A stretch of DNA of 64,000 nt from an uncultured Ruminococcus sp. (GTDB lineage Bacteria; Bacillota; Clostridia; Oscillospirales; CAG-272): assembly GCA_964617165.1 (NCBI GenBank), contig CAZTWE010000002.1:3247-67246 (forward strand). Reading direction: 5' to 3'. Positions 8,039 to 60,972 of the stretch are shown here, in pieces. The translations under genes were made by a program, and so were the position numbers. A model generated the notes under the pieces. The model saw only the letters and a program-made list of their open reading frames with translations, was not told the origin of the DNA and ran no database searches. Every line of letters starts with the position of its first letter. Positions within the stretch are counted from its first letter, which is position 1.

Positions 8039-8042
8039 AAAA

Positions 8043-8086
8043 ATCAACACGGTTGCCCACTTGAGTGCATACCGTGTTGATTTTTT
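8043..8086. terminator. bidirectional intrinsic terminator
   Basis: 11-bp stem atcaacacggt / accgtgttgat, with an A-run on the left and ttttt on the right. It lies between convergent genes. Confidence 0.75.
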
Positions 8087-8092
8087 GCCGTT

Positions 8093-9229: not shown

Positions 9230-9633
9230 ACAGTTCTCCTTTTTTTACGTATCATTTTCAGGGCACACGGGATAGTGCCCTATTGATTATATTCGTTTTC
9301 TCACTATTTGTCAATATCGCTGAAAAATATTTTTTTTGCAAGTCACGGATGATTTTGCAAGTTTTCTTCCTGCAAGGCATCAATTTTCTCATTTCAAGGA
9401 TTTTGCATATAAATATATATTGAAGAGAAATTTGAACATCAGATGAAATTCCCGATTATAAAATGCAATAAAAACTGTCAATTTGCTGCAAAATCGATCC
9501 ATATAATTCATTTTATTCACAGTTTTAAAATTCAAAAACGATTTATTTTTTCGTCAAAAGCAACAAAAAATGCACGCTTTAGCTCGAAAAAATTCATAAT
9601 TAGAACAAGATTTTTAACATTTTAGCAAAATGC

Positions 9634-9662
9634 TTGACTTTTTGAAAAAAAACATATATAAT
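9634..9662 (+). promoter_or_regulatory. consensus sigma-A promoter (TTGACT-17 nt-TATAAT)
   Basis: TTGACT at 9634-9639 and TATAAT at 9657-9662 with an exact 17-nt spacer. It is the only strong promoter upstream of the 10020 operon. Confidence 0.7.
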
Positions 9663-10019
9663 ATATTTTATTTAAGAAATACTTGTCTAGTTTTTCAAAA
9701 AATGAAAGGAATATGAGAGCATGAGTTTTGATTTCGCGGGCATTTGCAAGTGCTTTTACATATACCGATCGGTTCCGATACCGCTCCACCGAAAATTATC
9801 ATCCGAATTTTCGGCAGCATACGGACACCGTATACGAAGGGAACGATAGTCTGATACCCTGAATCGGTGCAAGAATATGAAAATTTAATCTGCGGCTCGC
9901 ATCGGGGATTTATCCGCGAAGCTTCGGTGAGGGGCGATGGCAGATATGATATAACCGCGCACAGGGTATCTGTGCAAAACAGAACATAGAGCATTACTTG
10001 CTCGGAAAGGAACACAAAG

Positions 10020-11084
10020 ATGGACGCAAAAAAGCATTTTGAAAGGTATTATTCAAAACTGAGGTTCGAGGCTGTACTCAAATCCGTGCTGTGCGGACTT
10101 ATCGTGGGCTTTGCCGCTAACTTTGTAGCCGCATTCTCCACGTGGTTTACCACTTTCAACGGTGTATGGCTCTCGCTCGGTATTCTTGCTGTTGCTACAG
10201 CTGCTGCGGCTCCGATCTTCTACTTCAAGAAATTCCGCCCGACGGCTATGAGCAACGCGAAGCGTATCGACCGCCTCGGACTTGAGGAGAGAATCATCAC
10301 GATGATCGAGTACGAGGATGACGACTCGCGCATAGCAGAGCTTCAGCGCGCTGATGCAAAGGCTAAGCTCGCAGCAGTCGAGGCATCCAGCATCAAGTTC
10401 AGCGTATCAAGAAAAATACTGATCGCTGTTGCTATCTGTGCTGTTCTCGGCAGTGCCATGACTACGGTAACGGGTCTTAGCGCGGGCGGTATTCTCCCCG
10501 GTGCAGACGAGATAATTCAAGCCATCATCCCCGATGAGCCCGACGTATACGTTTCGGTGTCTTACATCGTTGAGGACGGTGGTGATATCGAGGGAGACGA
10601 AGAGCAGCTCGTTCTTCTCGGCACCGCGGCAGAGCCCATCGAGGCTATTGCTTACGACGGTTACGCATTCAAGGGCTGGGATGACGGTTACAAGAAGCCC
10701 TTCAGATCCGACAAGGTATCAGAGAACGTTGTATACGTTGCAATATTCGAGCCTATAGGAGACGGTGACGGTGAGCCAGGTGATCAGCCCGGAGACGGAG
10801 ACCAGCCCGGAGATCAGCCCGGCAACCCCGGTGAGAACGGCAAGCCCGGCCCCAACGGTGTGCCCGGTGAAAACGGAATGCCCAACCCCGATGCAGAAGA
10901 CGGCAATTCCGATTACGGTGGAGGAAAATACCAGGAGAATAACCAGATCATAGACGGTGAGACCTACTACCGTGAGGTGCTGGAAACGTACAAGGATCTG
11001 CTCACCGAAAGAATGGAGCAGGAGGGTGAAAGCCTTACTCCCGAGGAAAAAGCCATCATCGAGGGCTATATCAACATAGTTTAA
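10020..11084 (+). CDS. membrane protein with a Listeria-Bacteroides (InlB B-type) repeat and a collagen-like Pro/Gly-rich segment
   Basis: Two N-terminal TM helices, a coiled/charged segment and a third TM. Then YVSVSYIVEDGG...AYDGYAFKGWDDGY...VVYVAIFEP (B-repeat), then GDGDGEPGDQPGDGDQPGDQPGNPGENGKPGPNGVPGENG. Confidence 0.6.
   Translation: MDAKKHFERYYSKLRFEAVLKSVLCGLIVGFAANFVAAFSTWFTTFNGVWLSLGILAVATAAAAPIFYFKKFRPTAMSNAKRIDRLGLEERIITMIEYEDDDSRIAELQRADAKAKLAAVEASSIKFSVSRKILIAVAICAVLGSAMTTVTGLSAGGILPGADEIIQAIIPDEPDVYVSVSYIVEDGGDIEGDEEQLVLLGTAAEPIEAIAYDGYAFKGWDDGYKKPFRSDKVSENVVYVAIFEPIGDGDGEPGDQPGDGDQPGDQPGNPGENGKPGPNGVPGENGMPNPDAEDGNSDYGGGKYQENNQIIDGETYYREVLETYKDLLTERMEQEGESLTPEEKAIIEGYINIV
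10749..10919 (+). repeat. imperfect tandem 9-12-nt repeats encoding a GDQP/GxxP collagen-like tract
   Basis: ggtgatcagcccggagacggagaccagcccggagatcagcccggcaaccccggtgagaacggcaagcccggc... Confidence 0.7.
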
Positions 11085-11260
11085 GAAACGGGGCTGCCAC
11101 ATTTCACGGGACGTTAAAATCCAAATTCAAATAAAATCTCAATTTTCATTTGAGACAGCCCGGTGAAAACTCAAAGCATCTTCCGCACGCGGAAGGCAAA
11201 AAATCAAAAGAAAATAAAAAACAAATTTGATAAAAAATCAACAAAGAGAGGCAAACGCTA

Positions 11261-12343
11261 ATGATAACAGAGCAGAACATTCAGAAGTTCAGCAAACAGT
11301 GCAATAACATTTTTGAACAGATCAAGCGCGACGTCATCGGTCAGACCGAGGTAATAGAGGGCGCTGTAATCGCTATGATAGCAGGCGGTAACGTACTGCT
11401 TGAGGGAGTTCCCGGAGTTGGTAAGACCCGTCTTGTAAGATCGCTCGGACGTGTATTCAATCTTCCTTTCTCGAGAATTCAGTTCACCCCCGACCTTATG
11501 CCTGCCGACGTAACAGGTACAAACATCATCACCAAGGATGAGAACGGAAACTCTTCCTTCCAGTTCCAGCCCGGTCCTATTTTCTCAAACATAATACTTG
11601 CCGACGAGATTAACCGTGCTACTCCCAAGACACAGTCTGCGCTTCTTGAGGCGATGCAGGAGCACACCGTAACGGTTATGGGTGTATCGAGAAAGCTCAA
11701 CGAGCCCTTCTTCGTTCTTGCTACCCAGAACCCCATCGAGCAGGACGGTACATATCCCCTCCCCGAGGCACAGATGGACCGTTTCATGTTCAAGATCATC
11801 GTTAACAACCCCTCGCTTGACGAGCTTATGAGCATAGTTGATATGACTCAGAAGACCATGGCAGAGGTTGCTGACTCCGCATGTAACGGTGAGGAGCTTC
11901 TTGAGATGCGTAAGACCGCTAACTCCATTCCCGTTGCTACTGAGGTTATGAGATACGCTATGATGCTCTGCTCCGCTACGCATCCCGACAGCGAGTGCGC
12001 AAGCGAGGCAGCTAAGAAGTACGTTCGTCTCGGTGCTTCTCCCCGTGCAGGTCAGGCTATGATCTCCGCGGCTAAGGTAAAGGCTCTCATGAAGGGTCGC
12101 TACAACGTTTCCTACGAGGATATCAACGAGCTCGCTCTTCCCGTACTCCGCCACCGTATCAAGCTCACGTTTGAAGCTGTTGCAGAGCGCGTTTCGGCAG
12201 ATGAGATCATCAAGATGATCATCAACGAGCTTATAGACAAGACAGGCATCAACGCAGCAAAGATCGCAACCTCTGCTGTTGCCGACAATGCCGATAACGG
12301 CGAAAAGGATACCAAGAAGCGCGGAATGTTTGGGAGAAAATAA
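11261..12343 (+). CDS. MoxR-family AAA+ ATPase
   Basis: Walker A GVPGVGKT, Walker B ILADEINRA and the ATQNPIEQDGTYPLPEAQMDRF motif typical of MoxR/AAA_3. Confidence 0.9.
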   Translation: MITEQNIQKFSKQCNNIFEQIKRDVIGQTEVIEGAVIAMIAGGNVLLEGVPGVGKTRLVRSLGRVFNLPFSRIQFTPDLMPADVTGTNIITKDENGNSSFQFQPGPIFSNIILADEINRATPKTQSALLEAMQEHTVTVMGVSRKLNEPFFVLATQNPIEQDGTYPLPEAQMDRFMFKIIVNNPSLDELMSIVDMTQKTMAEVADSACNGEELLEMRKTANSIPVATEVMRYAMMLCSATHPDSECASEAAKKYVRLGASPRAGQAMISAAKVKALMKGRYNVSYEDINELALPVLRHRIKLTFEAVAERVSADEIIKMIINELIDKTGINAAKIATSAVADNADNGEKDTKKRGMFGRK

Positions 12344-13242
12344 TGAAAGGTTCTTATTTAAACGATGGATTTTTCAGTCGTTTGGAGACCCTCGCTCTTG
12401 AGCTTCGCGCCGACCTCGGCGGCTTCTTCGGAGGTAAGCACCTTGTGCGCACCTACGGACAGACCGTTGAGTTTGCGGACTACCGTGAATACATGCTCGG
12501 CGATGATATCCGCCGTATCGACTGGAATTTGTACAGCCGTTTTGAAAAGTTCTTCCTGAAGTTATTCACAGACGAAAGACAGATGCACACGCAGATCTTT
12601 ATAGACTGCTCGGCATCAATGGGAAAGGATATGCCCGAGAAGGCAAACTATGCCGTCGGCGTTGCCGCAGCTCTCGGCTATCTTTCGGTCCACAACATGG
12701 ATAAAGTATCTTTCAAGCTGGTAAACGGAGAGGTTGCCGAGGACAGCTTCGGCACCATTGTAGGTAAAAAGGCATTCTTCAATGCTATCAGCACGCTTGA
12801 GAACATAGAGTTCGACGGTGAATCCGATATTTGCAAGGCTGTTACGAGCTGCCCTAATCTCGGCTCTAACGACGGTCTTACCGTTATCATCTCGGATTTC
12901 TTCACCGATAGCAACTGGAAAAAGGCAGTGGATTATCTCTGCTATAAGAAGAAGCAGGTCCTTCTCGTTCAGATCATGACCCCCGAGGAGCTCGACCCCT
13001 CGTACAGCGGACGCGTTAATCTTATTGACTCCGAAGCAGGCGGCATGGAGGACCCCAAAAACCTCAAGATAAAAATAAACCGTTCAAACCAGCTCGCATA
13101 CGAGGAGGCTCTGCGCGACATGCATGAGGCGATGCGCTCATTCTGCGCATCACGCGGTGCCGACTTTATCCGTGTAAGCTGTGATCAGCCCCTTGAAAAG
13201 ATGCTGTTCAAAGAATTACTGAAGGTGGGAATAATGGCATGA
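12343..13242 (+). CDS. DUF58 domain protein (VWA-like MoxR partner)
   Basis: FADYREYMLGDDIRRIDWNLYSRFEKFFLKLF signature. The start overlaps the MoxR stop (TAATG). Confidence 0.85.
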   Translation: MKGSYLNDGFFSRLETLALELRADLGGFFGGKHLVRTYGQTVEFADYREYMLGDDIRRIDWNLYSRFEKFFLKLFTDERQMHTQIFIDCSASMGKDMPEKANYAVGVAAALGYLSVHNMDKVSFKLVNGEVAEDSFGTIVGKKAFFNAISTLENIEFDGESDICKAVTSCPNLGSNDGLTVIISDFFTDSNWKKAVDYLCYKKKQVLLVQIMTPEELDPSYSGRVNLIDSEAGGMEDPKNLKIKINRSNQLAYEEALRDMHEAMRSFCASRGADFIRVSCDQPLEKMLFKELLKVGIMA

Positions 13243-15146
13243 GTTGGTTGACACCCTTAGGATTTTTGGGTCTTTTGGGACTTATAGTTCTGATTATAAT
13301 TTACCTTATAAGACCCAACTATCAGAATAAAATAATTTCCAGTACCTTTGTCTGGAAGCTTAGCTTAAAATACAGAAAAAAGAAGATACCCCTCAGCAAG
13401 CTGCGCAATATCATACTTTTCATTTGCCAGGTGCTGATAATTTCGGTTGCGGCTACCATACTCGCTCAGCCTATTATAGAGGCTGACAGAGAAGAGGAGC
13501 TTTCCGAAAAGGTCGTTATTATCGATGCTTCGGCATCAATGCTCACTCTCTCGGGTACAGAGACACGCTTTGAGCGTGCTGTCGGAGAGGTTCGCGCCCT
13601 CGCTGACGAGGTGCTTGATAACGACGGAAAGATATCAGTCATCTTAGCGCACGACACAGCTTCGTTTATCGTGCGTCAGGCAGGTGCGGACTTCAAGTCC
13701 GAGGTACGCCAGGCTCTTGACGATCTTGTCGATCCCGAGCTTGGTCTTGCGTGCACGTACAGCACTCCCGACATCACGGGTGCTATAAGACTTGCAGAGG
13801 AGATCACGGCAGCATCCTCCGACGTTGAGGTGTTGCTCTATTCCGACACTACATATATTGACGATGGCAAGGTTACGGTAAAGAACGACATAATCGATCC
13901 TGCGGATTGGAATGCGGCTATTCTTGACGTAAGAGCCATCGTTGATGAAAACTACTATCGCTTTGAGATAGACGTAGCCTGCTACGGAGATATGGATGCA
14001 GACGTTACCGTAAAATGCGAGATCTCGGGTGTTAACCTGGAAAAATCCACGCTCGATCTTACAGCTGTTGCGCGCTGCACCGACAATGAGACCGTGACTC
14101 TCGTATTCTCGGCAGACCCCGAGGTTGCTTCGGAGATGGTTGACGTGTATTCCTTTGAGAGTATTTATGCGCATATCGATGAGTACGACTCTTTTGAGTA
14201 CGACAACACCTTCTACCTTTACGGTGGAGAGAAGCAGCCGCTTAAAATTCAGTATTACAGTGCGCTCCACAACAACTACTTTGCCAGCGCGCTGATGATA
14301 CTGCGCGACCAGCTTCAGTACCGTTGGAATATTGACATCACAGAGGTCAAGGGAGAAGATGTTCCCGCGCTTGAGGGTTATGACGTTTACATCTTCGAGC
14401 ACATGATCCCCGCAACTCTGCCCACAGACGGTCTTGTTATCCTCGCAAACCCCGATGAAGTACCCTCTAATTCGGGCCTGCGCCTCGGTCAGATCTACAG
14501 TGCATCTCAGCCCATGCCTCTCAGCGAGGGCGATACACATGAGATAATGCGCATGATCAATCCCGAGAACATTGAGATAAGCCAATACACAAAAATAACG
14601 AGCTATGACGGTTACACGCCCCTGCTTTACTGCGGTGCGGACCCCGTATTTATGGTGAAGAACGAGCCTTTCCAGAAGATTGCGGTAATGTCCTTCAGCC
14701 TTAACTACTCAAACCTTCCCGTTATTCTGGAGTTCCCTCTCCTTATGTATAACCTTATCGAATATTACGTTCCCTCTACGGTTACCGAATACGTGTTTGA
14801 TATAAATGAAACTGTGGAGCTCAATTCGAGAAGTGACGAGCTCAGCGTCGTCGGTCCCGGTACCGATCTTGAATTCATAGAATTCCCCGGCGTTGTGCAT
14901 CTTACCACACCCGGTGTTTACACCGTAACTCAAACTCCCATCTCCGGAGAGGAGATCGTAGAGAACTTCTACGTCAAGATTCCTGCTGAGGAAAGTAATA
15001 TCAACAGCCAGGAAGACGTGCTTTTAAATCCCTATTTCGTCGAAAAAGAAGAAATAGAGGACAAGGATCTCTTATTATACTTTGCAATAGCGCTCGTTGC
15101 ACTGCTGTTCATCGAATGGTGGCTGCAAACGCGTGAGCAATTCTAG
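13239..15146 (+). CDS. BatA-type membrane protein: N-terminal double TM, VWA domain, GATase1-like region, C-terminal TM
   Basis: MSWLTPLGFLGLLGLIVLIIIYLIRP N-terminus, MIDAS-like VVIIDASASM and a C-terminal LLLYFAIALVALLFIEWW helix. ATGA overlap with DUF58. Confidence 0.75.
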   Translation: MSWLTPLGFLGLLGLIVLIIIYLIRPNYQNKIISSTFVWKLSLKYRKKKIPLSKLRNIILFICQVLIISVAATILAQPIIEADREEELSEKVVIIDASASMLTLSGTETRFERAVGEVRALADEVLDNDGKISVILAHDTASFIVRQAGADFKSEVRQALDDLVDPELGLACTYSTPDITGAIRLAEEITAASSDVEVLLYSDTTYIDDGKVTVKNDIIDPADWNAAILDVRAIVDENYYRFEIDVACYGDMDADVTVKCEISGVNLEKSTLDLTAVARCTDNETVTLVFSADPEVASEMVDVYSFESIYAHIDEYDSFEYDNTFYLYGGEKQPLKIQYYSALHNNYFASALMILRDQLQYRWNIDITEVKGEDVPALEGYDVYIFEHMIPATLPTDGLVILANPDEVPSNSGLRLGQIYSASQPMPLSEGDTHEIMRMINPENIEISQYTKITSYDGYTPLLYCGADPVFMVKNEPFQKIAVMSFSLNYSNLPVILEFPLLMYNLIEYYVPSTVTEYVFDINETVELNSRSDELSVVGPGTDLEFIEFPGVVHLTTPGVYTVTQTPISGEEIVENFYVKIPAEESNINSQEDVLLNPYFVEKEEIEDKDLLLYFAIALVALLFIEWWLQTREQF

Positions 15147-15160
15147 TTAGGAAAGTAAAA

Positions 15161-17917
15161 ATGACAAACTTTAGTATTAATTTTGCAAACCCCTGGCTTC
15201 TTCTGCTGCTGATACCGGCGGGACTGTTGACACTGATTCCCTATTTCCGCCTGAACAAAAGATATCGCTGCACAAGAAACCGTATCGTTTCGATTGTGCT
15301 ACATTTGATCATTATGGTTCTCTCCATCTCCGTGCTTGCCGGAATAACCTTTGAATACAATCTGCCGAACACCGAAAACGAGGTTCTCCTTCTTGTTGAC
15401 ACCTCGTTCAGCGGTGAAGAGAGCGAGGACGATAAGGACGATTTCATAAAATCGGTCATTGACAACAGTGACTCGATGTTCAAGCTCGGTATAGTTACGT
15501 TCGGATACGATCAGGTATACGCGGTAGAGCTTACCAACGATACGGGAAGTATCTACACCGAATACCTCAAGTCTCCCTCTCCCGATACCAGTGCGACGGA
15601 TATTGCATCCGCATTGCAGTATGCGGCAGGGCTCTTCAGCTCTCCCGAATCTGCAAGAATAGTCCTTATGACCGACGCGGTTGAGACGGACGGTAACGCC
15701 GCAGGCGTTATCAAGTCCATTGCCGCTCAGGGAATAAAGGTCGATACGGTATTCTTCCCCGAGGATAAGGACGGGGATGAGGTGCAGCTCATTAAGATGG
15801 AAAGTCCCAATCAGAAGATCAAGGTCGGTGATAAGTTCTCGATAACGCTGACAGTGCAGAGCTCTTATACAGGCACTGCAACTATCACTCCTTATGACAA
15901 CGATGCTCCCGGTGAAAGCATGGATATAGAGCTCTCCGAGGGCATGCAGACGATACAAATACCCTATATCTTTGCCGTGCCCGGCATGCACAAAATGTCC
16001 TTCGAGCTGACGAGCGACGACGATACACTTACACAAAACAACATATATAATTCTTATATGTACCTTGAGATATTTGAAAAGATACTTGTAATTGAGCGCA
16101 ATGATGCTGAGTCCCAGGCTATCTGCAGAATGCTCAAGGATGAACTCAAGGTCACTGTAGTCAACGTTGCCGACACCGATAAGATGCCCAAAACGGTTGA
16201 CGAACTCAGACAATACGACGAGGTCATACTCTGTAACATTGCAAACAGCGATATGCCCGACGGCTTCGACGAAGTACTTCATTCCTACGTAGCCGATGTA
16301 GGCGGAGGTCTGTTTACCGTTTGCGGTAACGACCAGGAGGCAGCACCCGGTGATGACGGTTGGACCGCTAACGCTTATACCAGAGATGATATGTACGGAA
16401 GTATTTATCAGCAGATGCTCCCCGTTGAGATCATAGACTACACTCCGCCCCTTGCCGTTATGATCATCATCGACCGTTCGGGCTCAATGTACGACCCCGA
16501 GGGCAAAGAGGATTATGAGGATAGTAAGCTTTACTTTGCAAAGTTGGGTGCAATAGAGTGCGTTGAGGCTCTTACCGAAAGAGACTACGTCGGAGTAATG
16601 TCACTCGGTGACGACTATGAGGAGCAGATAGAGCTCACTCCCCGTCCCCAGCGCGATAAGATAATTGCGGCTATCAACGAGCTTTCGGGAATTGACGGAA
16701 GCGAAGGCGGCGGCGGAACTCTGTTCTCCCCCGCGCTCCAGCGTGCAGGTAAGGCACTTTCCGCTATGTCCACCGTTGAAAAGAAGCACATCATCATCGT
16801 AACAGACGGTGAACCCAGCGCAGAGGACGAAGAAAACTACAAATACTGGATGGAAGAGAATGCCAAGCTCGGCATCACCATGTCCATCGTAGGTATTCAG
16901 TGCTCGGTTTCCGGACAGCAGAAGATGGTCTCCATTCTTGAAGACTATGCGGGTATGACCGCTGATAACTTCCACCCCGTTGAAAACCTGCAGTTGGTTG
17001 CTGAGGAAATGAAAATGGATCTTATGCAGCCCGAGATCAAAGACGTAAACTACGAGCCCTTTAGTCCCACTATCACATCCTCAAGCACCGTCACAAACGG
17101 AATTACTCAGGAAGCTATGGATACCATAGAGCTTGAAGGCTTCTACGGTGTGAAACTCAAAGACGGTGCGACATCTATGCTCATGGGTGAATACACGCCC
17201 ATCTATTCTCAGTGGCAGTACGGTAAGGGTACTGTAGGAACGTTTGCCTGCGACCTTGACGGAACGTTCTCCGCAAACCTTATTGACACCGACGTAGGCG
17301 AAACGCTTCTGAACAACATAGTCGTAGCTCTGTTCCCGACAGAAAACATCCGCCCCAAGGAAGTTGAGGCCGAGGTAAGCGGAAACAACTATACAACTCA
17401 GCTCAGCGTATTCACCGATCTCGATGAGGGCGAAACGGTAGAGGTCGTTGTAACGAGTCCTCTTGCGGAGGGCGAGAGCGAGCCTCTTGTGCAGACTCTT
17501 TCCGCAGGACTCGGCGGTGGCTACAGCAGATTTTCCTTTGCAGTAAAGACCCCGGGTATTCATGAAATACTCGTATACAAAAAGGATGCTGAAGGCAACG
17601 TAATCGAGAACAGCGAAACGACCGTTTACAAAGCTCTCTCGTACTCTCAGGAATACAATCTGTTCACCGACCCCGAGGTAGCCGAGGATCTTATAGAGAG
17701 CCTTGCAGCCGACGGAAAGGGCTCGGTGCTCACAGAGCCATGGCAGGTATTTGAAAACGTTGTTAAGTATCTGCACAGATCGATAGACCCCAGAATTCCG
17801 TTTATTATTACAGCACTCGTGCTCTTCTTGCTTGACATTGCCGTTCGTAAGTTCAAGTGGAAGTGGCCTCACGAGATAATCCGCGATAAGAAAGCCCAAG
17901 AGGCACTTTCAAATTAA
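15161..17917 (+). CDS. large membrane protein with a BatA-type N-terminus, two VWA domains, a GATase1-like domain and a C-terminal TM
   Basis: PWLLLLLIPAGLLTLIPYF N-terminus and MIDAS motifs LLLVDTSFSG and MIIIDRSGSM. ILVIERND...YDEVILCNIAN...GGGLFTVCG resembles the DUF1355/GATase1-like fold. C-terminal helix ITALVLFLLDIAV. Confidence 0.75.
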   Translation: MTNFSINFANPWLLLLLIPAGLLTLIPYFRLNKRYRCTRNRIVSIVLHLIIMVLSISVLAGITFEYNLPNTENEVLLLVDTSFSGEESEDDKDDFIKSVIDNSDSMFKLGIVTFGYDQVYAVELTNDTGSIYTEYLKSPSPDTSATDIASALQYAAGLFSSPESARIVLMTDAVETDGNAAGVIKSIAAQGIKVDTVFFPEDKDGDEVQLIKMESPNQKIKVGDKFSITLTVQSSYTGTATITPYDNDAPGESMDIELSEGMQTIQIPYIFAVPGMHKMSFELTSDDDTLTQNNIYNSYMYLEIFEKILVIERNDAESQAICRMLKDELKVTVVNVADTDKMPKTVDELRQYDEVILCNIANSDMPDGFDEVLHSYVADVGGGLFTVCGNDQEAAPGDDGWTANAYTRDDMYGSIYQQMLPVEIIDYTPPLAVMIIIDRSGSMYDPEGKEDYEDSKLYFAKLGAIECVEALTERDYVGVMSLGDDYEEQIELTPRPQRDKIIAAINELSGIDGSEGGGGTLFSPALQRAGKALSAMSTVEKKHIIIVTDGEPSAEDEENYKYWMEENAKLGITMSIVGIQCSVSGQQKMVSILEDYAGMTADNFHPVENLQLVAEEMKMDLMQPEIKDVNYEPFSPTITSSSTVTNGITQEAMDTIELEGFYGVKLKDGATSMLMGEYTPIYSQWQYGKGTVGTFACDLDGTFSANLIDTDVGETLLNNIVVALFPTENIRPKEVEAEVSGNNYTTQLSVFTDLDEGETVEVVVTSPLAEGESEPLVQTLSAGLGGGYSRFSFAVKTPGIHEILVYKKDAEGNVIENSETTVYKALSYSQEYNLFTDPEVAEDLIESLAADGKGSVLTEPWQVFENVVKYLHRSIDPRIPFIITALVLFLLDIAVRKFKWKWPHEIIRDKKAQEALSN

Positions 17918-17932
17918 GCAAAGGAGAAGAAG

Positions 17933-20854
17933 ATGAAAAAAATCGTTTTAACAGTATTTTCTATAAGCTTGCTTCTCCTTTGCATCCTGTCCATGGCATC
18001 CTGCTCAAACAGGCTGGATGCTCCGACAGGGCTTGAGCTTGACATAGATACTCAGACTCTTGAATGGAAAAAGGTTGACGGAGCAAGAGTATATACAGTT
18101 CAAGTCTCCGGTGAGGAGAGAGAAAAAACCACCAGGTCCAACTCTATATCTCTTGAATACCTTGAGCCCGGTACCTATGAAATCAAGGTCAAGGCGGTAG
18201 GAAACGAGGAAGAGGTTGCCGAATCCGAATGGGCTACCTACACGTTCGAGAGGATCGCTGAGAGCGGACTTCGATACAAGCTTATCAACAACGGTACCGA
18301 ATATCAGGTTACCGGCTCGGGTACGGCGTACGGAGACGTGGTAATGGAAAGCATATACCGCGGAAAGCCCGTTACCGCCATAGCCGATAAGGCATTTGCC
18401 AACAACAGAAAGATAACGAGCCTCGTTATCGGAAGCAACGTAAAATCGATCGGTAAGAACGCATTCACAAGATGCTCGGAGCTCACTTCCGTGACTATCC
18501 CCGAATCCGTTACCTCTATCGGTGATTACACGTTCCAGAGCTGCAAAAAGCTTGAGAGCATCGTGCTTCCCGACAGTATTACCGTAGTTTCCCCCTATAT
18601 GTTCTCCTGGTGCTCCGCACTGAAGAGCGTTACCGTGGGCAACAGAACCGAAAAAATATCCGAATACGCATTCTCCAACTGCGAAGCCCTGACTGAGGTT
18701 AAGCTTCCCGACACCGTTACGGTTATTGGAGAATATGCATTCTCCGACTGCGAAACAATGACCAAAATCACACTTGGCAGCGGAATTGAGGAGATCCACA
18801 CCTATGCATTCTACAACTGCGAGGCGATCAAATCAATAGAGCTCGGACAGAAGCTTAAATCACTCGGCTCATTTGCATTCGGAAACTGCAAAACTATAAC
18901 GACAATATCCATTCCCGATTCTACAGAGAGCATCGGTGACGCTGCTTTCGAGGGCTGTGCTGCTCTTGAGACAGTAACACTCGGTGCAAATATCCAAAAA
19001 ATCGGAATAGATGCTTTCCTTGACACTAAGATATATGACGATGCGCCCGATGAGGTTTATATCGGTAGCTGGTTTATAGCGACTAAGAACAAGGAGATAA
19101 CAAGCTTTACGCTCGCTGACGGCACCTACGGACTTGCCGATTGCGCATTCGTCGGCTGCAACGAGCTTCAGAGCATCACGCTTCCCGGCATCAGCAGAGT
19201 CGGCTCTTATGCATTCGGCTACTGCTCAAAGCTTTGGGAGGTCATCTTCGACGATTCACTTCTTTCAATAGATGCCAGTGCCTTTGCTTACTGCAAGGTG
19301 CTCACCGACGTTACCGTCGGAACAAGCCTTGAAACCATAGGAAACTATGCGTTCTACGGCTGTAGCCGATTTAACTCATTGGATCTGCCCGCAACAGTTA
19401 CCTCAATAGGCACACAAGCGTTTAACGATACCCGTGCATATACCGAAGCCTCCGACGTTGTCTATATTGACGACTGGGCTGTTTCGCTCAAGGAAGGTTT
19501 TTATACCGACGTTGTTATAAAGGACGGTACTCGCGGTATTGCAAATTACAGCTTCTACAATGGATTGATATTCTACACGATAACCATTCCCGATTCCGTA
19601 GAATACATCGGCAGAGCCGCATTCTACAATTGTCAGTACACTCCTTATATCTCGCTTCCCGAGGATCTTAAACATATCGGTGATTACGCGTTCTACGGCT
19701 GTGCAAGCACGTGGTTCGTTACAAACGATGCATTCTCGGCAGAGAGTGAGGTGGTGCTTGACGGTGTAACGGTCATCCCGAGCGGAACAAAGTACATAGG
19801 CAGAAGCGCATTCTACAATTGCCAGTCAATGGTCGGACTTGATATTCCGGGCTCGGTTAAAGAAATCGGACCTTACGCATTCTTCGGATGTGTAAACCTC
19901 GGAGACAGCCAGATATACATTGATGACCCCGAGGATTGCCTCAAGGGAGAGGTTATTCTCCACGAGGGTATTGAGAGCATCGGTGAGCGTGCATTCCAGA
20001 ACTGTGTCGGAATTGCCGATATCGTTCTGCCCGACAGCCTTACGACTGTTGGCTCGCGCGTATTCTACAAATGCTCCAACCTCAAGAGCGTAAAGATCGG
20101 TGCAGGCATAACCGAAATTCCCGATTATACGTTCTACAACTGCACGTCTCTTAACGGTATCGAGTTCTCTGACAGCATCGTTTCCATAGGAAGCTATGCA
20201 TTCCGCGGATGCGAGTCTATAAAAGAGCTTGAGATCGGAAAGAACGTTGAGAACATCGGAAGCTTTGCATTCTACGGCTGCAAGGGGCTTGACAGAATAG
20301 TAATTCCCGCAAGCGTCGTTTCCATTGGAAATTATGCATTCCGCGGCTGTTCAAATGCTACCTCCGTTATTTTGCCCGCGGGGCTTGAGGTAGTCGGAAA
20401 GCACGCATTCTACGGAATAAGCAAGGCAACCGTTTTCTGTGAGACAGAGTTTGTTCCCGCATATTGGGATGAGCGCTGGAACACATCCTTCCGCCCTGTT
20501 GTATGGGGCTGTACACTTTCCGATGACGGAAGCTACGTCGTATCCTTTACAAAGCATGCCGATGCAATCGACAATATAGATGCACCGAACATATCCATAG
20601 CTCCCGCGCGTGAAGGCTATATTTTCTCAGGCTGGTCGCTTACAGCTGAGGACAAAGAAATCGCATACACGGCAGATAAGCTTTCCGAAGCTACGGACGG
20701 CACCGCACTCTATGCTGTATATGCAGAAGACGTAACCCCTCCTCCTGCGGATGATACCACCGCAGGCGAGGGTGCTACCGAGGGTGACGGCATGGGCAGC
20801 GGTGAGACCGATAACGGTAACGCCGACGGCGCAGAGGAAAACAACAATACCTAA
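17933..20854 (+). CDS. BspA-type leucine-rich-repeat lipoprotein with a C-terminal B-repeat and acidic tail
   Basis: Signal peptide with LSMASC lipobox. Dozens of ~23-aa repeats of type IPxSVxxIGxxAFxxCxxLxSV. C-terminal ...REGYIFSGWSL...ALYAVYAE (Listeria-Bacteroides repeat). RBS AAAGGAG. Confidence 0.8.
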   Translation: MKKIVLTVFSISLLLLCILSMASCSNRLDAPTGLELDIDTQTLEWKKVDGARVYTVQVSGEEREKTTRSNSISLEYLEPGTYEIKVKAVGNEEEVAESEWATYTFERIAESGLRYKLINNGTEYQVTGSGTAYGDVVMESIYRGKPVTAIADKAFANNRKITSLVIGSNVKSIGKNAFTRCSELTSVTIPESVTSIGDYTFQSCKKLESIVLPDSITVVSPYMFSWCSALKSVTVGNRTEKISEYAFSNCEALTEVKLPDTVTVIGEYAFSDCETMTKITLGSGIEEIHTYAFYNCEAIKSIELGQKLKSLGSFAFGNCKTITTISIPDSTESIGDAAFEGCAALETVTLGANIQKIGIDAFLDTKIYDDAPDEVYIGSWFIATKNKEITSFTLADGTYGLADCAFVGCNELQSITLPGISRVGSYAFGYCSKLWEVIFDDSLLSIDASAFAYCKVLTDVTVGTSLETIGNYAFYGCSRFNSLDLPATVTSIGTQAFNDTRAYTEASDVVYIDDWAVSLKEGFYTDVVIKDGTRGIANYSFYNGLIFYTITIPDSVEYIGRAAFYNCQYTPYISLPEDLKHIGDYAFYGCASTWFVTNDAFSAESEVVLDGVTVIPSGTKYIGRSAFYNCQSMVGLDIPGSVKEIGPYAFFGCVNLGDSQIYIDDPEDCLKGEVILHEGIESIGERAFQNCVGIADIVLPDSLTTVGSRVFYKCSNLKSVKIGAGITEIPDYTFYNCTSLNGIEFSDSIVSIGSYAFRGCESIKELEIGKNVENIGSFAFYGCKGLDRIVIPASVVSIGNYAFRGCSNATSVILPAGLEVVGKHAFYGISKATVFCETEFVPAYWDERWNTSFRPVVWGCTLSDDGSYVVSFTKHADAIDNIDAPNISIAPAREGYIFSGWSLTAEDKEIAYTADKLSEATDGTALYAVYAEDVTPPPADDTTAGEGATEGDGMGSGETDNGNADGAEENNNT
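18371..20440 (+). repeat. LRR_5 (BspA-like) repeat array within the CDS; boundaries approximate
   Basis: Recurrent gcattctacaactgc / AFxxC...L..I.IP..V..IG units across ~2 kb. Confidence 0.6.
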
Positions 20855-20868
20855 GACAGGATAAGAAA

Positions 20869-23800
20869 ATGAATAATAACCGTAAAATTAAAATTATCAT
20901 GATCGCAGTCCTGGTCATGATCTTAGCATGTGCGGCGATGCTTACCGGCTGCAACAGTAGCGTAGTCAGCGATATTGTTGTATTGAACTCGGGCAAACCA
21001 CGCACGGTCTACGTAGAGGGCCAGGATCTTGACCTTTCCGGCGGTGTTATTACCGCTATTGTGGACGGGGAGGAGACCTCGATCCCCATGAACAGTGAGG
21101 ACGTAACCGTTACCGGTTATGACAAAGACACTATCGGAAAACAGACTCTTACCATAACCTACAAGGAAAAGACAACAACCATCGAAGTAAACGTAATTGC
21201 ACGTATGGTTGCGGAAAACTTTGAAACAAATTATTTTGTCGGTGATAAGCTTGACACCTCGAAGGGCAGGCTCAGAATAGCCAGAGACAACGCAACTACG
21301 TTTACGGTAAATCTCAGCGATTCTACAGTTACCGTCAAGTCCTTTGATTCATCCAAATCGGGCGCAGCAACCGTTACGGTAGGCTATAAGGGCAGCGCAG
21401 GTGAGGACTACGAAGCCGATTTCAGCGTAAACGTATATGACGTCGGCGAGGTCGTTTTCACAAAGCCCTATAAAGACGACTACAGCAGTCATGATACCGA
21501 GCTCGATTTTTCGGGCGGATACTTTACTATCAAGGCATCCGGCAATTCCAGCTTCTCCAAGTTTGTATATCTCAATTCCGAGCTGGTAAAGGTAAGCGGA
21601 TTTAAGCCCGAAGACGTTACTATCGAAAACAGAGATACTCCCGCAGATCAAACGGTCGTTTTCGAATACGCGGGAAAGACTTACAAATTCCCCATTACCG
21701 TAGTTTACAGCAGCATTTCTATTGTAAAGCAGAGAATAGAGGAGCTCGCTGATCTTGACTGGTCGAAGGATGAGGTCACAATAGACGAGGGGCACGGTCT
21801 TGCCGCGCTTGATGCTATCAAGGAATACTACAAGCTCACGAACGCTGAGAAAAAATCTCTCAGTGAGGATGAGATAAACACAATCGTACGTCCTGCGGCA
21901 GTATACATAAACGATATGTATATCAAGGAGCTTGAAACCTACTCGGGAAGCTTTGGAATAACCTCCGACGGATATTTCACTCTTTATGCAGAAAGCTACG
22001 ATGCCGTTGAGACCGACCGTGACAGGCTTAAGGACCCCAACGAAAAGATCAACACCTACGGTGATATCTTGCGCGATATTTATGCAGATTTTGCAAAAAC
22101 CGTTATCGCTAACAAGATAACCATTGCAGATTACGTATTTGTTCTCAGCGCAGAGAGCAACGATTATCTGATCGCAATACTTGATCAGGCACTGAAGGTA
22201 TACGATGCCTTCTCCGTTATTCCCGACGATTGGACTGTTGAAGATCTTTCGACAACCGAATATGCCTCCGCTATCACCAAGGAGGTCGCCAGAATAACCG
22301 CAAGTGAGTTCATCGGTCTCGGATACGCCGCTATATATCAGCGTGCTTCCGCATGGAGAACTAACGACGATATTATTGACATTATCTACTCCTACTACAT
22401 GTACGCAGTTGAGGATCCCAAGACTGCGGTTGAAGGAACTCTTTGGAACAAACTTCCCATGCCCGGCAAGCTTCAGTCATGGTACGAGGAGCTTTACAAT
22501 GCGAGCTACGACGTTCAGACCTGCTGGAACTATGCATCGACAGGCGAAGCATACCTTTACGACACCGTAACACTGTTTGATGCTTACTACAAGTCGCAGG
22601 TATACGCTGCTGAGATAAAGAGCGGTGAAGATAAGCTTGCCCTTGACGTTTACAACATCATCGAGGGCGATGATATATTCAACGAAAACATCAAAAAGGC
22701 TCTTTTGGGATATGATGAAAACGATAGCCCGGTATACGGCTTCGGATACATTTATCATGCAGGCGAGGGCCTTGACAGTGCGACTCTTGAGCAAATGTGG
22801 AAAACCTACCTTGCGCTCTACGATCTTTACTTGCTCGGCATTGAAGATCCCAAGGCAAACGAGAAAGAGTTTGTTGCTGCGTTCAACGCACTTGCAGAGC
22901 TTTCCCCCGCAGAGGTTCACGCATTCCTTTGTTCTATGCATTTCCAGTATGACTCCTCAAACGGAAACATTCTTGTTCTTGATTATTCAAACAGCGCACG
23001 GAGCACGTTCGTTTATCTTATAGCAAACTATTACCTTGAATGTCTGCCCGAGGCAGCGGATCCTCTCTTCCAGAAGATGCTTCTTGCTATAGAAAACCTC
23101 TCGCTCATCAACTTCAAGGCATCCGCGCTTGATGATTTCAAAACCGTTATGGGAGAGCTTACTACAGCATACGATGATCTTTCCGACGAGGATGAAGCTA
23201 TATTCAATCAGTACGTTGGCGAATGTTACAACAAATACGTTAGCATTTATAACGTAATAAACGGAACTGCGGAAGTAACCGCACCTTCAAGCTTCGAGGA
23301 ACTTTACAATACCCTTTGTGCGTTTGACAAGGTAAACGAATTCTTCACATCAACCGAGGAGGGGCTTGATAAGGACGGAGTTCACGCACTTGTATTTGCT
23401 CTTTATGAAAAGGCAAAGGTGCTTTACGGAAACGTTGTGGCTGCCGGTGAAACCGATGCCGCTGCTCTTCTTGCACTCTACACCAAGGAATATGAATTTG
23501 GTGAGAAGTCCATGACTCTTGACCGCAAATTCTATGACGTAAGCGGCACGTTTGCAGGATACATGATGTATTCGACCATTACCTCAACCGATGATGCGGG
23601 TAACAAGACTCTCTACATGGCTTGGGAGATCTACGAGGTATCGGGCATTGATGCGTTCCTTGCAGATGCGGCATACCTCATGATGACCGATTTCGACGGT
23701 ACTTATACGACCGACAAAGATACCGTTCTCAGACTGATGCAGGCATTCCGTGCACTCAACTCGGCAGATCAGAACACGTTCTTCACCTTTGACGTTGACG

Positions 23801-24066
23801 TTCTTTACTATTCGGCAATCGAGAAATTCCTTGCAACCGTTCTCACCGAACAGGAGCTTGCGCTTGCAAAGGCTATATTTGAAGCCGAGGCGGCATACGT
23901 TATGATCGCAGAGGATGCCGAGAATACGGAAGCTATAGAGAAGTTCAAAACCGAAATGTCGGAAGCAACGGCACTTCTCGTTCCTACCGAAAGCTTTGAA
24001 GAATATCTTTCGGATATTTACTATTATTACTACGATAAGTATTCGGCACTGAACGAGGCTGAATAA
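20869..24066 (+). CDS. lipoprotein: N-terminal bacterial Ig-like (Big_3-type) domains plus a ~780-aa alpha-helical region with no recognisable family
   Basis: LTGC lipobox. Repeats of type PRTVYVEGQDLDLSGGVITAIVDG...TVTGYDKDTIGKQTLTITYKEKTTTIEVNV. The remainder is rich in A/E/Y/D/L with no motif I recognise. Confidence 0.65.
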   Translation: MNNNRKIKIIMIAVLVMILACAAMLTGCNSSVVSDIVVLNSGKPRTVYVEGQDLDLSGGVITAIVDGEETSIPMNSEDVTVTGYDKDTIGKQTLTITYKEKTTTIEVNVIARMVAENFETNYFVGDKLDTSKGRLRIARDNATTFTVNLSDSTVTVKSFDSSKSGAATVTVGYKGSAGEDYEADFSVNVYDVGEVVFTKPYKDDYSSHDTELDFSGGYFTIKASGNSSFSKFVYLNSELVKVSGFKPEDVTIENRDTPADQTVVFEYAGKTYKFPITVVYSSISIVKQRIEELADLDWSKDEVTIDEGHGLAALDAIKEYYKLTNAEKKSLSEDEINTIVRPAAVYINDMYIKELETYSGSFGITSDGYFTLYAESYDAVETDRDRLKDPNEKINTYGDILRDIYADFAKTVIANKITIADYVFVLSAESNDYLIAILDQALKVYDAFSVIPDDWTVEDLSTTEYASAITKEVARITASEFIGLGYAAIYQRASAWRTNDDIIDIIYSYYMYAVEDPKTAVEGTLWNKLPMPGKLQSWYEELYNASYDVQTCWNYASTGEAYLYDTVTLFDAYYKSQVYAAEIKSGEDKLALDVYNIIEGDDIFNENIKKALLGYDENDSPVYGFGYIYHAGEGLDSATLEQMWKTYLALYDLYLLGIEDPKANEKEFVAAFNALAELSPAEVHAFLCSMHFQYDSSNGNILVLDYSNSARSTFVYLIANYYLECLPEAADPLFQKMLLAIENLSLINFKASALDDFKTVMGELTTAYDDLSDEDEAIFNQYVGECYNKYVSIYNVINGTAEVTAPSSFEELYNTLCAFDKVNEFFTSTEEGLDKDGVHALVFALYEKAKVLYGNVVAAGETDAAALLALYTKEYEFGEKSMTLDRKFYDVSGTFAGYMMYSTITSTDDAGNKTLYMAWEIYEVSGIDAFLADAAYLMMTDFDGTYTTDKDTVLRLMQAFRALNSADQNTFFTFDVDVLYYSAIEKFLATVLTEQELALAKAIFEAEAAYVMIAEDAENTEAIEKFKTEMSEATALLVPTESFEEYLSDIYYYYYDKYSALNEAE

Positions 24067-24211
24067 TTTAACATCTTGCCGTATCACTTTCAAAAAAATG
24101 CCGTTACGTCGCATTTGCTACGTAACAGCTTCATTCGAGTAAAAACGGAGAAATACGCTACTCTTAGCGGATTTTCAACCTTTATTTTCTGATCAGATAT
24201 AAAAAAGCAGT

Positions 24212-24250
24212 GGCGAGGCAGAAATTTCTTTCTACCTCGCCAATTTTGTT
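24212..24250. terminator. bidirectional intrinsic terminator
   Basis: ggcgaggcaga / tctacctcgcc stem flanked by aaaaaa on the left and aattttgttt on the right. It lies between convergent genes. Confidence 0.65.
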
Positions 24251-24285
24251 TCCGATTACGCCTAAATGCGACAGCCCATTGATTT

Positions 24286-25596
24286 TTATTTAAAGTCTCC
24301 AAGGTAATCCTTATTAACAGCGAACAGCTCATCGCACATCTCTTTTATTTCTTCAAGACTAAGCACAGCCGAGCAAAGAGGATCAAGCGACACTGCCTGA
24401 TAAACCATCTCGCGCGATTTTTTCTCCCATGCCTTTACGACAAGATTTTCTATACCCGCAGTTTGAGCAACCATTATTGCCGCGGCATCGGGCAACGCAC
24501 CGACAAACGTTCTGGTATATCCGCGCTCATCTGCTATAACGGGTATCTCAACACATGCATCGTATGGAAGATTTGTAATCGAGCCGTTATTTATGATATT
24601 TGCGTTAAATGCAAACGGTGTATGGTCGCCTATTCTTGCATTGAGAATATTTGCTGCGTATTCATGGCTCCTACCCTCCGGCAAGGGCTTTTTCATCCAC
24701 GCCTCAATGATCTTCTTGTATCTGTCGGGATCGCGGCGAAGATTGAGGGAGAAACCGTATTCGCCCGGGTTCCAGTTAGAGCCAACGGGGGAGCAGAACT
24801 TGCGGATAAGGTCGGGCCTCTTTCTGAACCACGGTGTATACTCGGAATTGTGACCGCTCGATTCCGTGACGTAATATCCAAAGGTCTTGAATATCTCGTT
24901 TCTTACTTTTTCCTTGTTGTAGTATTTCGGGAGCTTTATTTTCTCACGAAGTATCGGATACATGTCCTCTCCGCCGTACTCAAGCTTTATAAAGAACGCC
25001 ATGTGATTTATACCTATGCAGGTGTACTCAACGTCTGAGTAGTCACATTCCGCCCATTCTGCAAGCATTTTAGACGTTCCCTGAACACTGTGACAGAGCC
25101 CCGTTACGTCAACCTTGGTATAGGTCTGCATAGCTTTGCAGAGCATGCTCATCGGGTTTGTGTAGTTCAGGAATACCGCATTCGGGCAAAGCCTTTCTAT
25201 ATCGGCGCATATTTCAAGCATCAGGGGGATATTACGCAACGCCCTGAAAATACCGGAAACGCTTCGCGTGTCACCGACGTTTATATCCACTCCGTATTTT
25301 TTTGGTATCTCTATTTCATGACGCCACACGTCAACGTCTCCGTTGAACACGGTGCAAAGCACAGCATCCGCACCGCGGAGCGCATCTTCTCTGTCGGTTG
25401 TCGCGGTAATCTTGAAATTCACGCCGCGCTCTGATTTTATCCTCTCAACGCATTTGGTTATCTCGGCAAGATGATATTCATTTATATCCATAAGACATAT
25501 ATGCGCATCATCAAAAGCGGGATAGGTAGTAAGGTCATTCACCACAGCGGTAGTAAATTGAACGCTTCCCGCACCTATAAAGGCTATCTTTTTCAT
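24286..25596 (-). CDS. melA: GH4 alpha-galactosidase / alpha-glucosidase (NAD- and Mn-dependent)
   Basis: MKKIAFIGAGSVQFT Rossmann start, the CHSVQGT motif, 436 aa. RBS AGGAGAAG. Confidence 0.8.
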   Translation of the reverse strand: MKKIAFIGAGSVQFTTAVVNDLTTYPAFDDAHICLMDINEYHLAEITKCVERIKSERGVNFKITATTDREDALRGADAVLCTVFNGDVDVWRHEIEIPKKYGVDINVGDTRSVSGIFRALRNIPLMLEICADIERLCPNAVFLNYTNPMSMLCKAMQTYTKVDVTGLCHSVQGTSKMLAEWAECDYSDVEYTCIGINHMAFFIKLEYGGEDMYPILREKIKLPKYYNKEKVRNEIFKTFGYYVTESSGHNSEYTPWFRKRPDLIRKFCSPVGSNWNPGEYGFSLNLRRDPDRYKKIIEAWMKKPLPEGRSHEYAANILNARIGDHTPFAFNANIINNGSITNLPYDACVEIPVIADERGYTRTFVGALPDAAAIMVAQTAGIENLVVKAWEKKSREMVYQAVSLDPLCSAVLSLEEIKEMCDELFAVNKDYLGDFK

Positions 25597-26601: not shown

Positions 26602-26629
26602 GCAAAGGACGCAGGAGGAGGACAATCAG

Positions 26630-60950: not shown

Positions 60951-60972
60951 ATTTATGTTAACCTTTCAGTTT

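Follow-up and report, generated by a model that had tools for sequence, protein, structure and literature searches.

A MoxR/DUF58/VWA operon with conserved leucine-rich repeat lipoprotein partners in gut Clostridia, a candidate cell-envelope system

Results

A seven-gene operon combines a MoxR/DUF58/VWA core with surface proteins

The stretch of DNA studied here (64,000 nucleotides of contig CAZTWE010000002.1, assembly GCA_964617165.1, from an uncultured Ruminococcus sp.; hereafter the window) contains seven tightly packed open reading frames (ORFs) on the + strand between 10020 and 24066, as seen in its ORF listing. Positions are window coordinates; genes are labelled g0 to g7 in operon order, and the loci of relatives carry identifiers of the type L001. 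The first gene, g1 (10020-11084), encodes a membrane protein of 354 residues with three transmembrane (TM) segments and a B-repeat. It is followed by g2 (11261-12343), a cytoplasmic MoxR-type, MRP-like AAA+ ATPase, and by g3 (12343-13242), a cytoplasmic DUF58 protein with a motif, DCSAS, resembling a metal ion-dependent adhesion site (MIDAS). Next come g4 (13239-15146), a BatA-type membrane VWA protein, and g5 (15161-17917), a membrane protein with two VWA domains. The last two genes encode a BspA-type leucine-rich repeat (LRR) lipoprotein (g6, 17933-20854) and an accessory lipoprotein with immunoglobulin (Ig)-like and all-alpha parts (g7, 20869-24066).

The original prediction, made from the sequence alone, had placed seven genes on one strand at these positions, and all seven ORFs were found there. 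It had also described a TAATG overlap at 12343, an ATGA overlap at 13239 and gaps of 14-15 nt with purine-rich ribosome-binding sites at the remaining close junctions, a description that was borne out. Direct reading of the sequence and its translations placed a purine tract resembling a ribosome-binding site before each of the start codons of g1 to g7.

The module is conserved across gut Clostridia

Homology searches returned more than 1593 relatives of g5, about 350 of g1 and about 115 full-length relatives of g7, all of them from gut metagenome-assembled genomes labelled Clostridia, Oscillospiraceae or Ruminococcaceae. The gene order was already identical around the g7 relatives of lowest identity (26-34%). 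When one genome per GTDB species was scanned with a g5 alignment, a relative turned up in 412 genomes, from which the best 80 loci (43-63% identity) were taken; 80 further loci (37-50% identity to the lead sequence) came from a scan of metagenomes that started from the most divergent g5. These 160 loci were scored for the seven genes and dereplicated at ≥95% g5 identity, which left 118 groups with a g5 identity of 37-63%; the presence of a gene was counted only on contigs with room for it. BLASTP showed that all seven proteins are represented by full-length orthologues, g6 included where the precomputed Pfam annotation was absent.

After dereplication, g4 was present in 104/104 groups, and g6 followed g5 in all 102 groups that could be scored. 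g1 was found in 73/74 groups, and MoxR (g2) and DUF58 (g3) were each found in 78/81. In 63 of 68 groups a giant + strand ORF, g0, lay directly upstream of g1, at a median gap of 229 nt. The spacing was likewise regular, with median gaps of 47 nt between g1 and g2, -1 nt between g2 and g3 (across 59 loci), -4 nt between g3 and g4, 13 nt between g4 and g5, 12 nt between g5 and g6 and 14 nt between g6 and g7. A functional linkage of the surface genes with the core is thus strongly supported. The idea that these genes adjoin the MoxR-DUF58-VWA core for more than accidental reasons held for g6 and g1; it did not extend to g7, which occurs in only 42/91 groups and is therefore an accessory. g7 is clade-restricted as well as optional, being present in 39/70 groups near the window versus 3/26 in the divergent branch.

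Where g7 is absent, either the operon stops or a Flg_new/LRR_5 protein of 1500-2000 residues comes next, which suggests a variable 'last slot' after g6 for large surface proteins. Large same-strand proteins follow g6 in L036 (16319-22414), L053 (15651-20249), L079 (11098-16155) and similar loci; among those scanned, the L053 protein contains Flg_new and LRR_5, and the L079 protein Flg_new. Tandem copies were also encountered, with two g7 genes in L049 (15654-18761 and 18902-22255) and two g1 genes in L052 (3475-4569 and 4878-5984).

The core composition of the module is g0 to g6, with g7 optional. The window has no g0 gene upstream of g1; a weakly pectate-lyase-like gene and a GH42 gene lie there instead, and the absence of g0 makes the window locus atypical among its relatives. 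At species level, 412 or more genomes of gut Clostridia from human, ruminant, rabbit, mouse and chicken sources carry the module, as does at least one named isolate, Anaerocaecibacter muris CLA-AA-M11 (L069). Mean conservation was highest for MoxR (0.80) and DUF58 (0.74), followed by g5 (0.49), g4 (0.47), g1 (0.41), g6 (0.40) and g7 (0.31). The ectodomains evolve fast.

MoxR and DUF58 are highly conserved cytoplasmic proteins

The assignment of g2 to the MoxR AAA+ family was confirmed by Pfam matches to AAA_3 (208.7 bits) and AAA_lid_2 (68.5 bits), and by the presence of the predicted Walker A (GVPGVGKT) and Walker B (ILADEINR) motifs, both invariant in 54/54 orthologues. It also matches PDB entry 2r44 (E=2e-70). 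The identification of g3 as a DUF58 protein was equally clear (112 bits in Pfam), and D88, S90 and S92 of its DCSAS motif were invariant in 69/69 orthologues; no solved structural relative of g3 was found. Neither translation contains a TM segment or a signal peptide. The TAATG overlap and the median gap of -1 nt mark g2 and g3 as translationally coupled neighbours. Three MIDAS-type VWA motifs had been described in total, DASAS, DTSFS and DRSGS; all three are present, and the DCSAS motif of DUF58 makes a fourth.

g4 and g5 are predicted to expose their VWA domains outside the cell

g4 comprises two TM segments, a VWA domain, an ectodomain of about 400 residues devoid of Pfam matches and a C-terminal TM segment. 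Its N-terminus matches the BatA N-terminal domain (38.6 bits, for a cut-off of 25.9) and its VWA domain, carrying DASAS, matches VWA_2. In g5, two TM segments are followed by VWA1 (DTSFS), a segment weakly resembling ThuA/GATase1, VWA2 (DRSGS), a beta-rich region, a C-terminal TM segment and a conserved basic tail. The solved structures nearest to VWA2 are those of BatB (3ibs and 4jdu). The two proteins had been proposed to share a BatA-type double-TM N-terminus. Both indeed have this topology, but a Pfam match to BatA was obtained for g4 only and not for g5 despite its similar arrangement. The GATase1-like inserts that had been proposed received weak support in g5, whose window copy matched ThuA at E=0.057 (PF07090 is annotated 'faint' for its homologues), and no support in g4, which gave no match.

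The loop between TM1 and TM2 has a net charge of +9 in g4 and +7 in g5, and the C-terminal tail of g5 one of +6, as assessed in about 80 orthologues. The positive-inside rule is satisfied across these orthologues if the g4 and g5 loops and the g5 tail are cytoplasmic, and the large VWA-bearing regions would therefore lie outside. From this we infer that the VWA domains of g4 and g5 face the cell exterior. Such a placement agrees with that of BB0173, a BatA-like homologue from Borrelia whose VWA domain was placed in the periplasm by experiment (PMC5700661).

The MIDAS residues of g5 VWA2 (D438, S440, S442, T520 and D549) were invariant in 81/81 sequences, and those of VWA1 nearly so. The most conserved stretches inside g4 and g5 are the ones predicted to face the cytoplasm. 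The TM1-TM2 loop of g4 is near-invariant; in g5, K33, R36, R39 and N40 of the loop and the specified residues of the tail motif AxRKFKxKWxHE were invariant in 81/81 sequences. This pattern suggests that the near-invariant cytoplasmic loops and tails contact MoxR and DUF58. We also considered the earlier proposal that MoxR loads metal onto a VWA scaffold. Direct loading is topologically awkward, because MoxR and DUF58 are cytoplasmic and the VWA domains extracytoplasmic, so that the partners stand on opposite sides of the membrane. Judging from conservation, contact through the loops and tails is more likely.

g1 is a membrane protein without a fold relative in the PDB

In an AlphaFold2 model of g1 (pLDDT, the model's per-residue confidence score, of 79), TM1 spans residues 8-42, TM2 49-72 and TM3 131-155. 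Three cytoplasmic helices (76-119) carry the invariant motif ARRxDRLGLEERLITMxE...QRxDA. On the outer side, the model shows a beta-grasp B-repeat (177-245), for which a Flg_new_2 match was obtained in 33/35 family members, an acidic disordered linker (250-308) and a C-terminal helical hairpin (317-353). A collagen-like tract had been proposed in this protein. What was found instead is the linker, which is disordered (pLDDT <50) and not conserved (0.11); only its composition is maintained, with a median net charge of -14. No fold relative was found in the PDB, the best match not falling below E=0.7.

Residues 11-97 of g1 showed some similarity to the N-terminal two-TM region of DUF4175 (PF13779), with 16.1 bits and E=0.003 in a scan limited to the N-terminal 160 residues, for a gathering score of 27.3; the whole protein gave 13.3 bits. 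The similarity is weak and inconsistent, only 4/35 family members matching (best E=7.9e-5), and g1 was not assigned to DUF4175 on this basis. The DUF4175 literature (AdvA, PMC7481262) provided no link to MoxR. The two-TM N-terminus (10020-10310) is nonetheless recurrently, if weakly, DUF4175-like and may represent a remote link to another membrane family.

g6, g7 and g0 are lipoproteins with their own anchors

The description of g6 as a BspA-type LRR lipoprotein was upheld by an LRR_5 match of 549.7 bits over seven stretches (Pfam) and by a lipobox whose Cys24 is kept in 79/80 orthologues. The N-terminus gave an fn3 match (E=5e-4) that stays under the curated cut-off (20.7 versus 25 bits), the rest of the protein corresponds to LRR_5 and the C-terminus contains a B-repeat. 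Against NF047961, the model of the HupY/LrrG adhesins, g6 scored 210.7 bits, far under the equivalog cut-off of 1250; this match reflects shared LRR repeats only, not orthology.

g7 has an LTGC lipobox and two Big_3 matches in Pfam. It had been described as an Ig lipoprotein with an orphan domain of about 780 residues; both parts were recognized in the AlphaFold2 model (pLDDT 89), where the Ig-like domains number three rather than two and the all-alpha domain comprises 784 residues. The alpha part had no Pfam match even at E<=5, a profile search against PDB sequences matched the Big_3 part only, and a Foldseek search of the PDB with the alpha-domain produced only Ig matches and generic alpha-solenoid alignments with a TM-score of at most 0.10. 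In a set of 1.84 billion proteins its family accounts for only 229 representative clusters, whose full-length members share one architecture. A helical module common to the g1 C-terminus and either the g7 alpha-domain or the g0 tails ('L[ST]xE[ED]xxx[FI]') was considered and rejected, the HHalign probability being at most 5.7%.

The g0 proteins reach about 3300 residues and start with a Sec/lipoprotein-type signal peptide. In L086 (715-9603), g0 encodes 2962 residues with a lipobox (LASC|G), an FN3-like N-terminus resembling that of g6 and many LRR_5 repeats. This domain content makes g0 a giant g6 paralogue. All three lipoproteins, g6, g7 and g0, keep the lipobox Cys.

Duplicated modules and loci devoid of MoxR or DUF58

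Seven genomes carry two modules. The paired copies share 39-50% identity in g1 and g4, 45-64% in g5 and 39-48% in g6, and this divergence implies that the structural genes were duplicated and kept as a set. Some loci lack part of the core and show no remnant of it: L001/L002 and L079 are devoid of both MoxR and DUF58, L043 of MoxR and L057 of DUF58. A complete module is present in the same genome in two of these cases, L030 accompanying L079 in Subdoligranulum sp. CAG:314 and L053 accompanying L043 in UMGS285. In L079, a MoxR-like N-terminus begins at 16197, downstream of the cluster at the contig end. The whole picture fits MoxR-DUF58 being a trans-acting service module, with g1, g4, g5, g6 and g0 making up a copy-specific structural assembly. 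L133-L140 and L127-L129 also belong to this set of loci, in which some genomes have two diverged modules and a second copy that cleanly lacks MoxR and/or DUF58.

Transcription signals and spacers

A sigma-70-type promoter-like site (TTGACT-17-TATAAT, 11/12 matches) at 9634-9662 is the top-scoring + strand match within 9000-25000. It is a plausible promoter but not a proven one, since such matches occur at chance level overall (22 found versus 20.8 expected). Terminator-like matches were also at chance level (16 versus 14.5), and internal promoters or terminators separating the lipoprotein genes from the core, which would have spoken against the original prediction, were thus not detected above chance. 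At the other end, a hairpin at 24211-24242 has a 14-bp stem with 7 GC pairs. The scan reported it on the - strand, but it is preceded by an A-tract and followed on the + strand by a T-tract, TTTTGTTT, and is therefore bidirectional; as judged from these features, it can end both the operon and the convergent GH4 gene. The promoter at 9634 and terminator at 24212 that had been proposed to flank the operon are accordingly both present, the former as a promoter-like site only and the latter as a hairpin serving both strands.

The g1-g2 spacer (11085-11260) measures 176 nt in the window versus the median of 47 nt given above. As had been proposed, it contains a short hairpin, here followed by an A-rich tract, and no U-run or + strand terminator. 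Between the promoter-like site and g1 lies an untranslated leader of about 350 nt (9663-10019). No Rfam match was obtained in the window at the gathering score, nor across 9200-11300 at E<=1, and the idea of a riboswitch or other known RNA in the leader was dropped. Its sequence showed no similarity to the 160 related loci, and no trace of g0 was found there that would make it a g0 pseudogene remnant. The leader may be a lineage-specific regulatory element, or the true promoter may sit nearer g1.

Flanking genes and other observations in the window

The operon flanks (6347-9229 and 24286-25596) encode a GH42 beta-galactosidase, a protein weakly resembling pectate lyases (under the Pfam cut-off) and a GH4 protein. 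These carbohydrate-active genes are consistent with a saccharolytic gut organism. Further downstream, a + strand ORF of 1064 codons (26516-29710; likely true start M39) encodes a protein that begins with a signal peptide and whose C-terminal part is Cys-rich and ends in a TM anchor and the residues KKKK. The protein had no Pfam match and no similarity to g1-g7, so that it could not be retained as a g7 paralogue; it sits in a stretch of lower GC content (0.39-0.40 versus 0.48 in the operon). At 60001-64000 the GC content drops sharply to 0.33-0.35, versus 0.40-0.50 elsewhere in the window, with a reversal in the sign of the GC skew. This part may be a foreign or mobile segment.

Discussion

A membrane complex served by MoxR-DUF58

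We propose, with middling confidence, that the g1-g7 region is a single operon and that the complex it encodes in gut Clostridia is dedicated to the cell envelope. The explanation that we favor overall, and to which we would give about an even chance, is that of a membrane complex remodelled by MoxR-DUF58 and having a role in adhesion or surface recognition. In RavA-ViaA, CbbQ-CbbO, NorQ-NorD and BchI-BchD, an AAA+ hexamer of the MoxR/Mg-chelatase clade and a VWA adaptor that carries a MIDAS together remodel or mature one particular target complex. By analogy with these pairs, the MoxR hexamer and the VWA-like adaptor DUF58 would spend ATP in the cytoplasm to assemble or remodel a membrane base that, judging from topology and conservation, could be formed by g1, g4 and g5. 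They would engage this base through the loops and tails of g4 and g5 and the helices of g1. MoxR-DUF58 may be a shared service, because some second module copies do without it.

The outer side of the model is more speculative. The extracellular MIDAS sites may bind acidic ligands in a metal-dependent manner, the ligand being either the co-encoded, fast-evolving LRR lipoproteins, in which case a surface assembly would result, or a host or environmental molecule. Overall, the module would serve its carriers in the gut for adhesion or for surface recognition. We consider that the module probably has such a role because of its BspA-type LRRs with a partial HupY/LrrG match, the fast evolution of the ectodomains and the behavior of BB0172, a Borrelia VWA protein encoded beside MoxR that binds integrin alpha3beta1 (PMC5700661). 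Complex formation between the lipoproteins and the membrane VWA proteins is plausible. The original prediction went further, casting the VWA proteins as a scaffold that displays the adhesins; such a scaffold is unnecessary, as g0, g6 and g7 have lipid anchors of their own.

Several observations weigh against this explanation. The lipid anchors mean that docking on the VWA proteins is not required. The acidic C-terminal tail of g6, which we had considered as a conserved MIDAS ligand, turned out to be specific to the window (the tail has a median length of 8 residues in orthologues), which removes one candidate ligand, and about 30% of orthologues have a degenerate MIDAS in g4, where 55/80 keep the third Ser. 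Some loci have neither MoxR nor DUF58, L001 having none within 10 kb, so that the ATPase may not be strictly needed. The structure models are of single chains, and models of this kind cannot reveal contacts of MoxR/DUF58 with the loops or of VWA with LRR domains. Finally, deletion of Bat-type genes in Leptospira caused no phenotype (PMC3557215), which makes function in this superfamily hard to infer.

A bolder version would have the module work as an ATP-driven, integrin-like 'inside-out' adhesion machine, in which MoxR-DUF58 switches the affinity of the extracellular MIDAS VWA domains and so controls the engagement of ligands by the LRR coat. The motor would transmit its action by way of the TM helices of g4, g5 and g1 together with the invariant cytoplasmic loops and tails, and low- and high-affinity states of the VWA domains would control the binding of host or microbial ligands by g0 and g6, with or without g7. 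We regard this version as improbable. If it were true, the MRP-MoxR/DUF58/Bat superfamily would gain a general mechanism, namely control exerted across the membrane on VWA domains outside the cytoplasm.

Comparison with known systems

The core resembles the Bat operon (MoxR, DUF58 and BatA-BatE) of Bacteroides, spirochaetes and Francisella in that MoxR and DUF58 are followed by two double-TM MIDAS-VWA proteins, of which g4 exceeds the Pfam cut-off for BatA and g5 has a VWA2 closest to the BatB structures. The predicted location of the VWA domains outside the cytoplasm is a further likeness, as demonstrated for BB0173 (PMC5700661). Unlike Bat loci, the seven proteins gave no match to the TPR, SH3 or BatD families (Pfam, E<=0.01), and the absence of TPR and BatD components sets the operon apart from a canonical Bat operon. 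In addition, g4 and g5 exceed their Bat counterparts two- to threefold in size and contain extra ectodomains, with two VWA domains in g5; the module has g1 and two LRR lipoproteins, g6 and g0, as obligate additional partners; and its hosts are Bacillota (Clostridia), presumably monoderm, whereas Bat hosts belong to diderm lineages. The function of the Bat family is itself unresolved, and its aerotolerance phenotype is inconsistent (PMC3557215).

Two other systems offer partial precedents. In the PFNA cluster of Bifidobacterium (pkb2, fn3, aaa-atp/MoxR, duf58 and tgm), MoxR-DUF58 is fixed beside a large secreted or surface adhesin-like protein in a Gram-positive gut bacterium (PMC8430577), and the N-termini of g6 and g0 weakly resemble FN3. 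This resemblance apart, the partner proteins of the two systems are non-homologous; PFNA has neither BatA-type VWA membrane proteins nor LRR proteins, and no match to a Ser/Thr kinase such as pkb2 (Pkinase) or to a transglutaminase-like protein such as tgm was found in our operon or in the flanking genes (GH42, pectate-lyase-like and GH4). In the BB0170-BB0176 region of Borrelia burgdorferi, membrane VWA proteins with BatA-like domains, BB0172 and BB0173, adjoin MoxR; BB0172 is an adhesin that binds host integrin, and the BB0173 VWA domain is extracytoplasmic (PMC5700661). Borrelia differs in being diderm and in having small single-VWA proteins, and it has no LRR or Ig lipoprotein partners. 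Neither of the two precedents includes LRR lipoproteins, a protein like g1 or a double-VWA protein.

With the general MoxR-VWA chaperone pairs, the module has in common an AAA+ hexamer and a MIDAS VWA adaptor, here DUF58. The targets of these pairs are soluble or membrane enzymes, whereas the presumed target here is a membrane VWA/LRR assembly whose VWA domains would lie across the membrane from the ATPase. The architecture had been thought to be undescribed, and a full-text literature search, whose coverage was incomplete so that absence is not proof, retrieved no paper containing both MoxR and BspA and, among the MoxR papers listed, no description of such a linkage; PFNA and BB0172/BB0173 are the nearest cases. 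By its domain content, the core belongs to the MRP-type MoxR/DUF58/BatA-VWA superfamily, and what appears new is the obligate partnership with LRR lipoproteins.

Alternative explanations

We considered the possibility that the core is a Bat-type envelope-stress or 'aerotolerance' system that maintains envelope or redox homeostasis, the LRR lipoproteins being its clients or passengers. The homology of the core to Bat (the BatA domain of g4; the proximity of g5 VWA2 to BatB 3ibs and 4jdu) and the nature of the carriers, which as gut Clostridia are presumably anaerobes, are in keeping with it, as are the loss of aerotolerance in B. fragilis bat mutants and the oxygen-responsiveness of the bat-like genes of Borrelia (PMC3557215, PMC5700661). 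Yet g1-g7 include no TPR, BatD or SH3 component, work in Leptospira did not reproduce the role in aerotolerance (PMC3557215), and the linkage to LRR lipoproteins in 102/102 groups, together with duplication of the unit with copy-specific g1, g4, g5 and g6, points to a structural partnership. On balance we find this explanation unlikely. Somewhat less likely still is a role in surface-protein biogenesis, with MoxR-DUF58 as a pre-export or assembly chaperone for g0, g6 and g7, and g1, g4 and g5 as a secretion or maturation platform. A parallel exists in Mycobacterium tuberculosis, where MoxR1 is required for export of the envelope enzyme RipA (PMC4810496), and giant lipoproteins do adjoin the core (g0 in 63/68 and g6 in 102/102 groups), g0 with its Sec/lipoprotein-type signal peptide. 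A purely export role would nevertheless leave the invariant extracellular MIDAS sites unexplained; modules devoid of MoxR/DUF58 retain g0, g1, g4, g5 and g6; and no secretin, ABC exporter, sortase or other secretion component was found among the Pfam/NCBIfam matches of the operon.

It could also be argued that a standard MoxR-DUF58-VWA core merely happens to lie beside unrelated, abundant surface-protein genes. Proteins with LRR_5, Flg_new and Big_3 are very common in these genomes, more of them flank many of the loci, and about half of the relatives have no g7. Against this, g6 and g1 accompany the core in 102/102 and 73/74 groups, down to 37-43% g5 identity, and are orthologous over their full length, not arbitrary LRR proteins; gene order and spacing have been maintained, and the module has been duplicated as a unit. 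Accidental adjacency is thus refuted for g1 and g6 and arguable only for g7, and as an account of the whole locus it is very improbable. We give even less credence to a role in conflict or anti-phage defence like that of NTP-dependent MoxR-vWA systems. The matches that brought it to mind were weak, 42.6 bits for bpMoxR (Pfam) on g2 and 31 bits for DolB (PADLOC), whereas AAA_3 is far stronger on g2 at 208.7 bits. No beta-propeller, effector domain or other typical family was found by Pfam on the seven proteins, PADLOC gave only weak generic AAA matches and no family for g1 or g3-g7, and all the partner proteins are membrane or surface proteins; this domain content effectively refutes a defence system.

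Significance

Among bacterial gene clusters without a known molecular function, the MoxR-DUF58-VWA (Bat-type) operons rank with the most widespread. In the module described here, the core is tied to identifiable outward-facing partners, the LRR lipoproteins and a new protein with three TM segments, which provides a handle on the function of Bat and MoxR-DUF58 systems. The cytoplasmic motifs that would contact MoxR/DUF58, the ligands of the extracellular MIDAS sites and the putative role in adhesion all become testable. The work also defines two protein families without detectable fold relatives, g1 and the alpha-domain of g7. For the poorly studied gut commensals that carry it, the module is likely to be a major surface structure.

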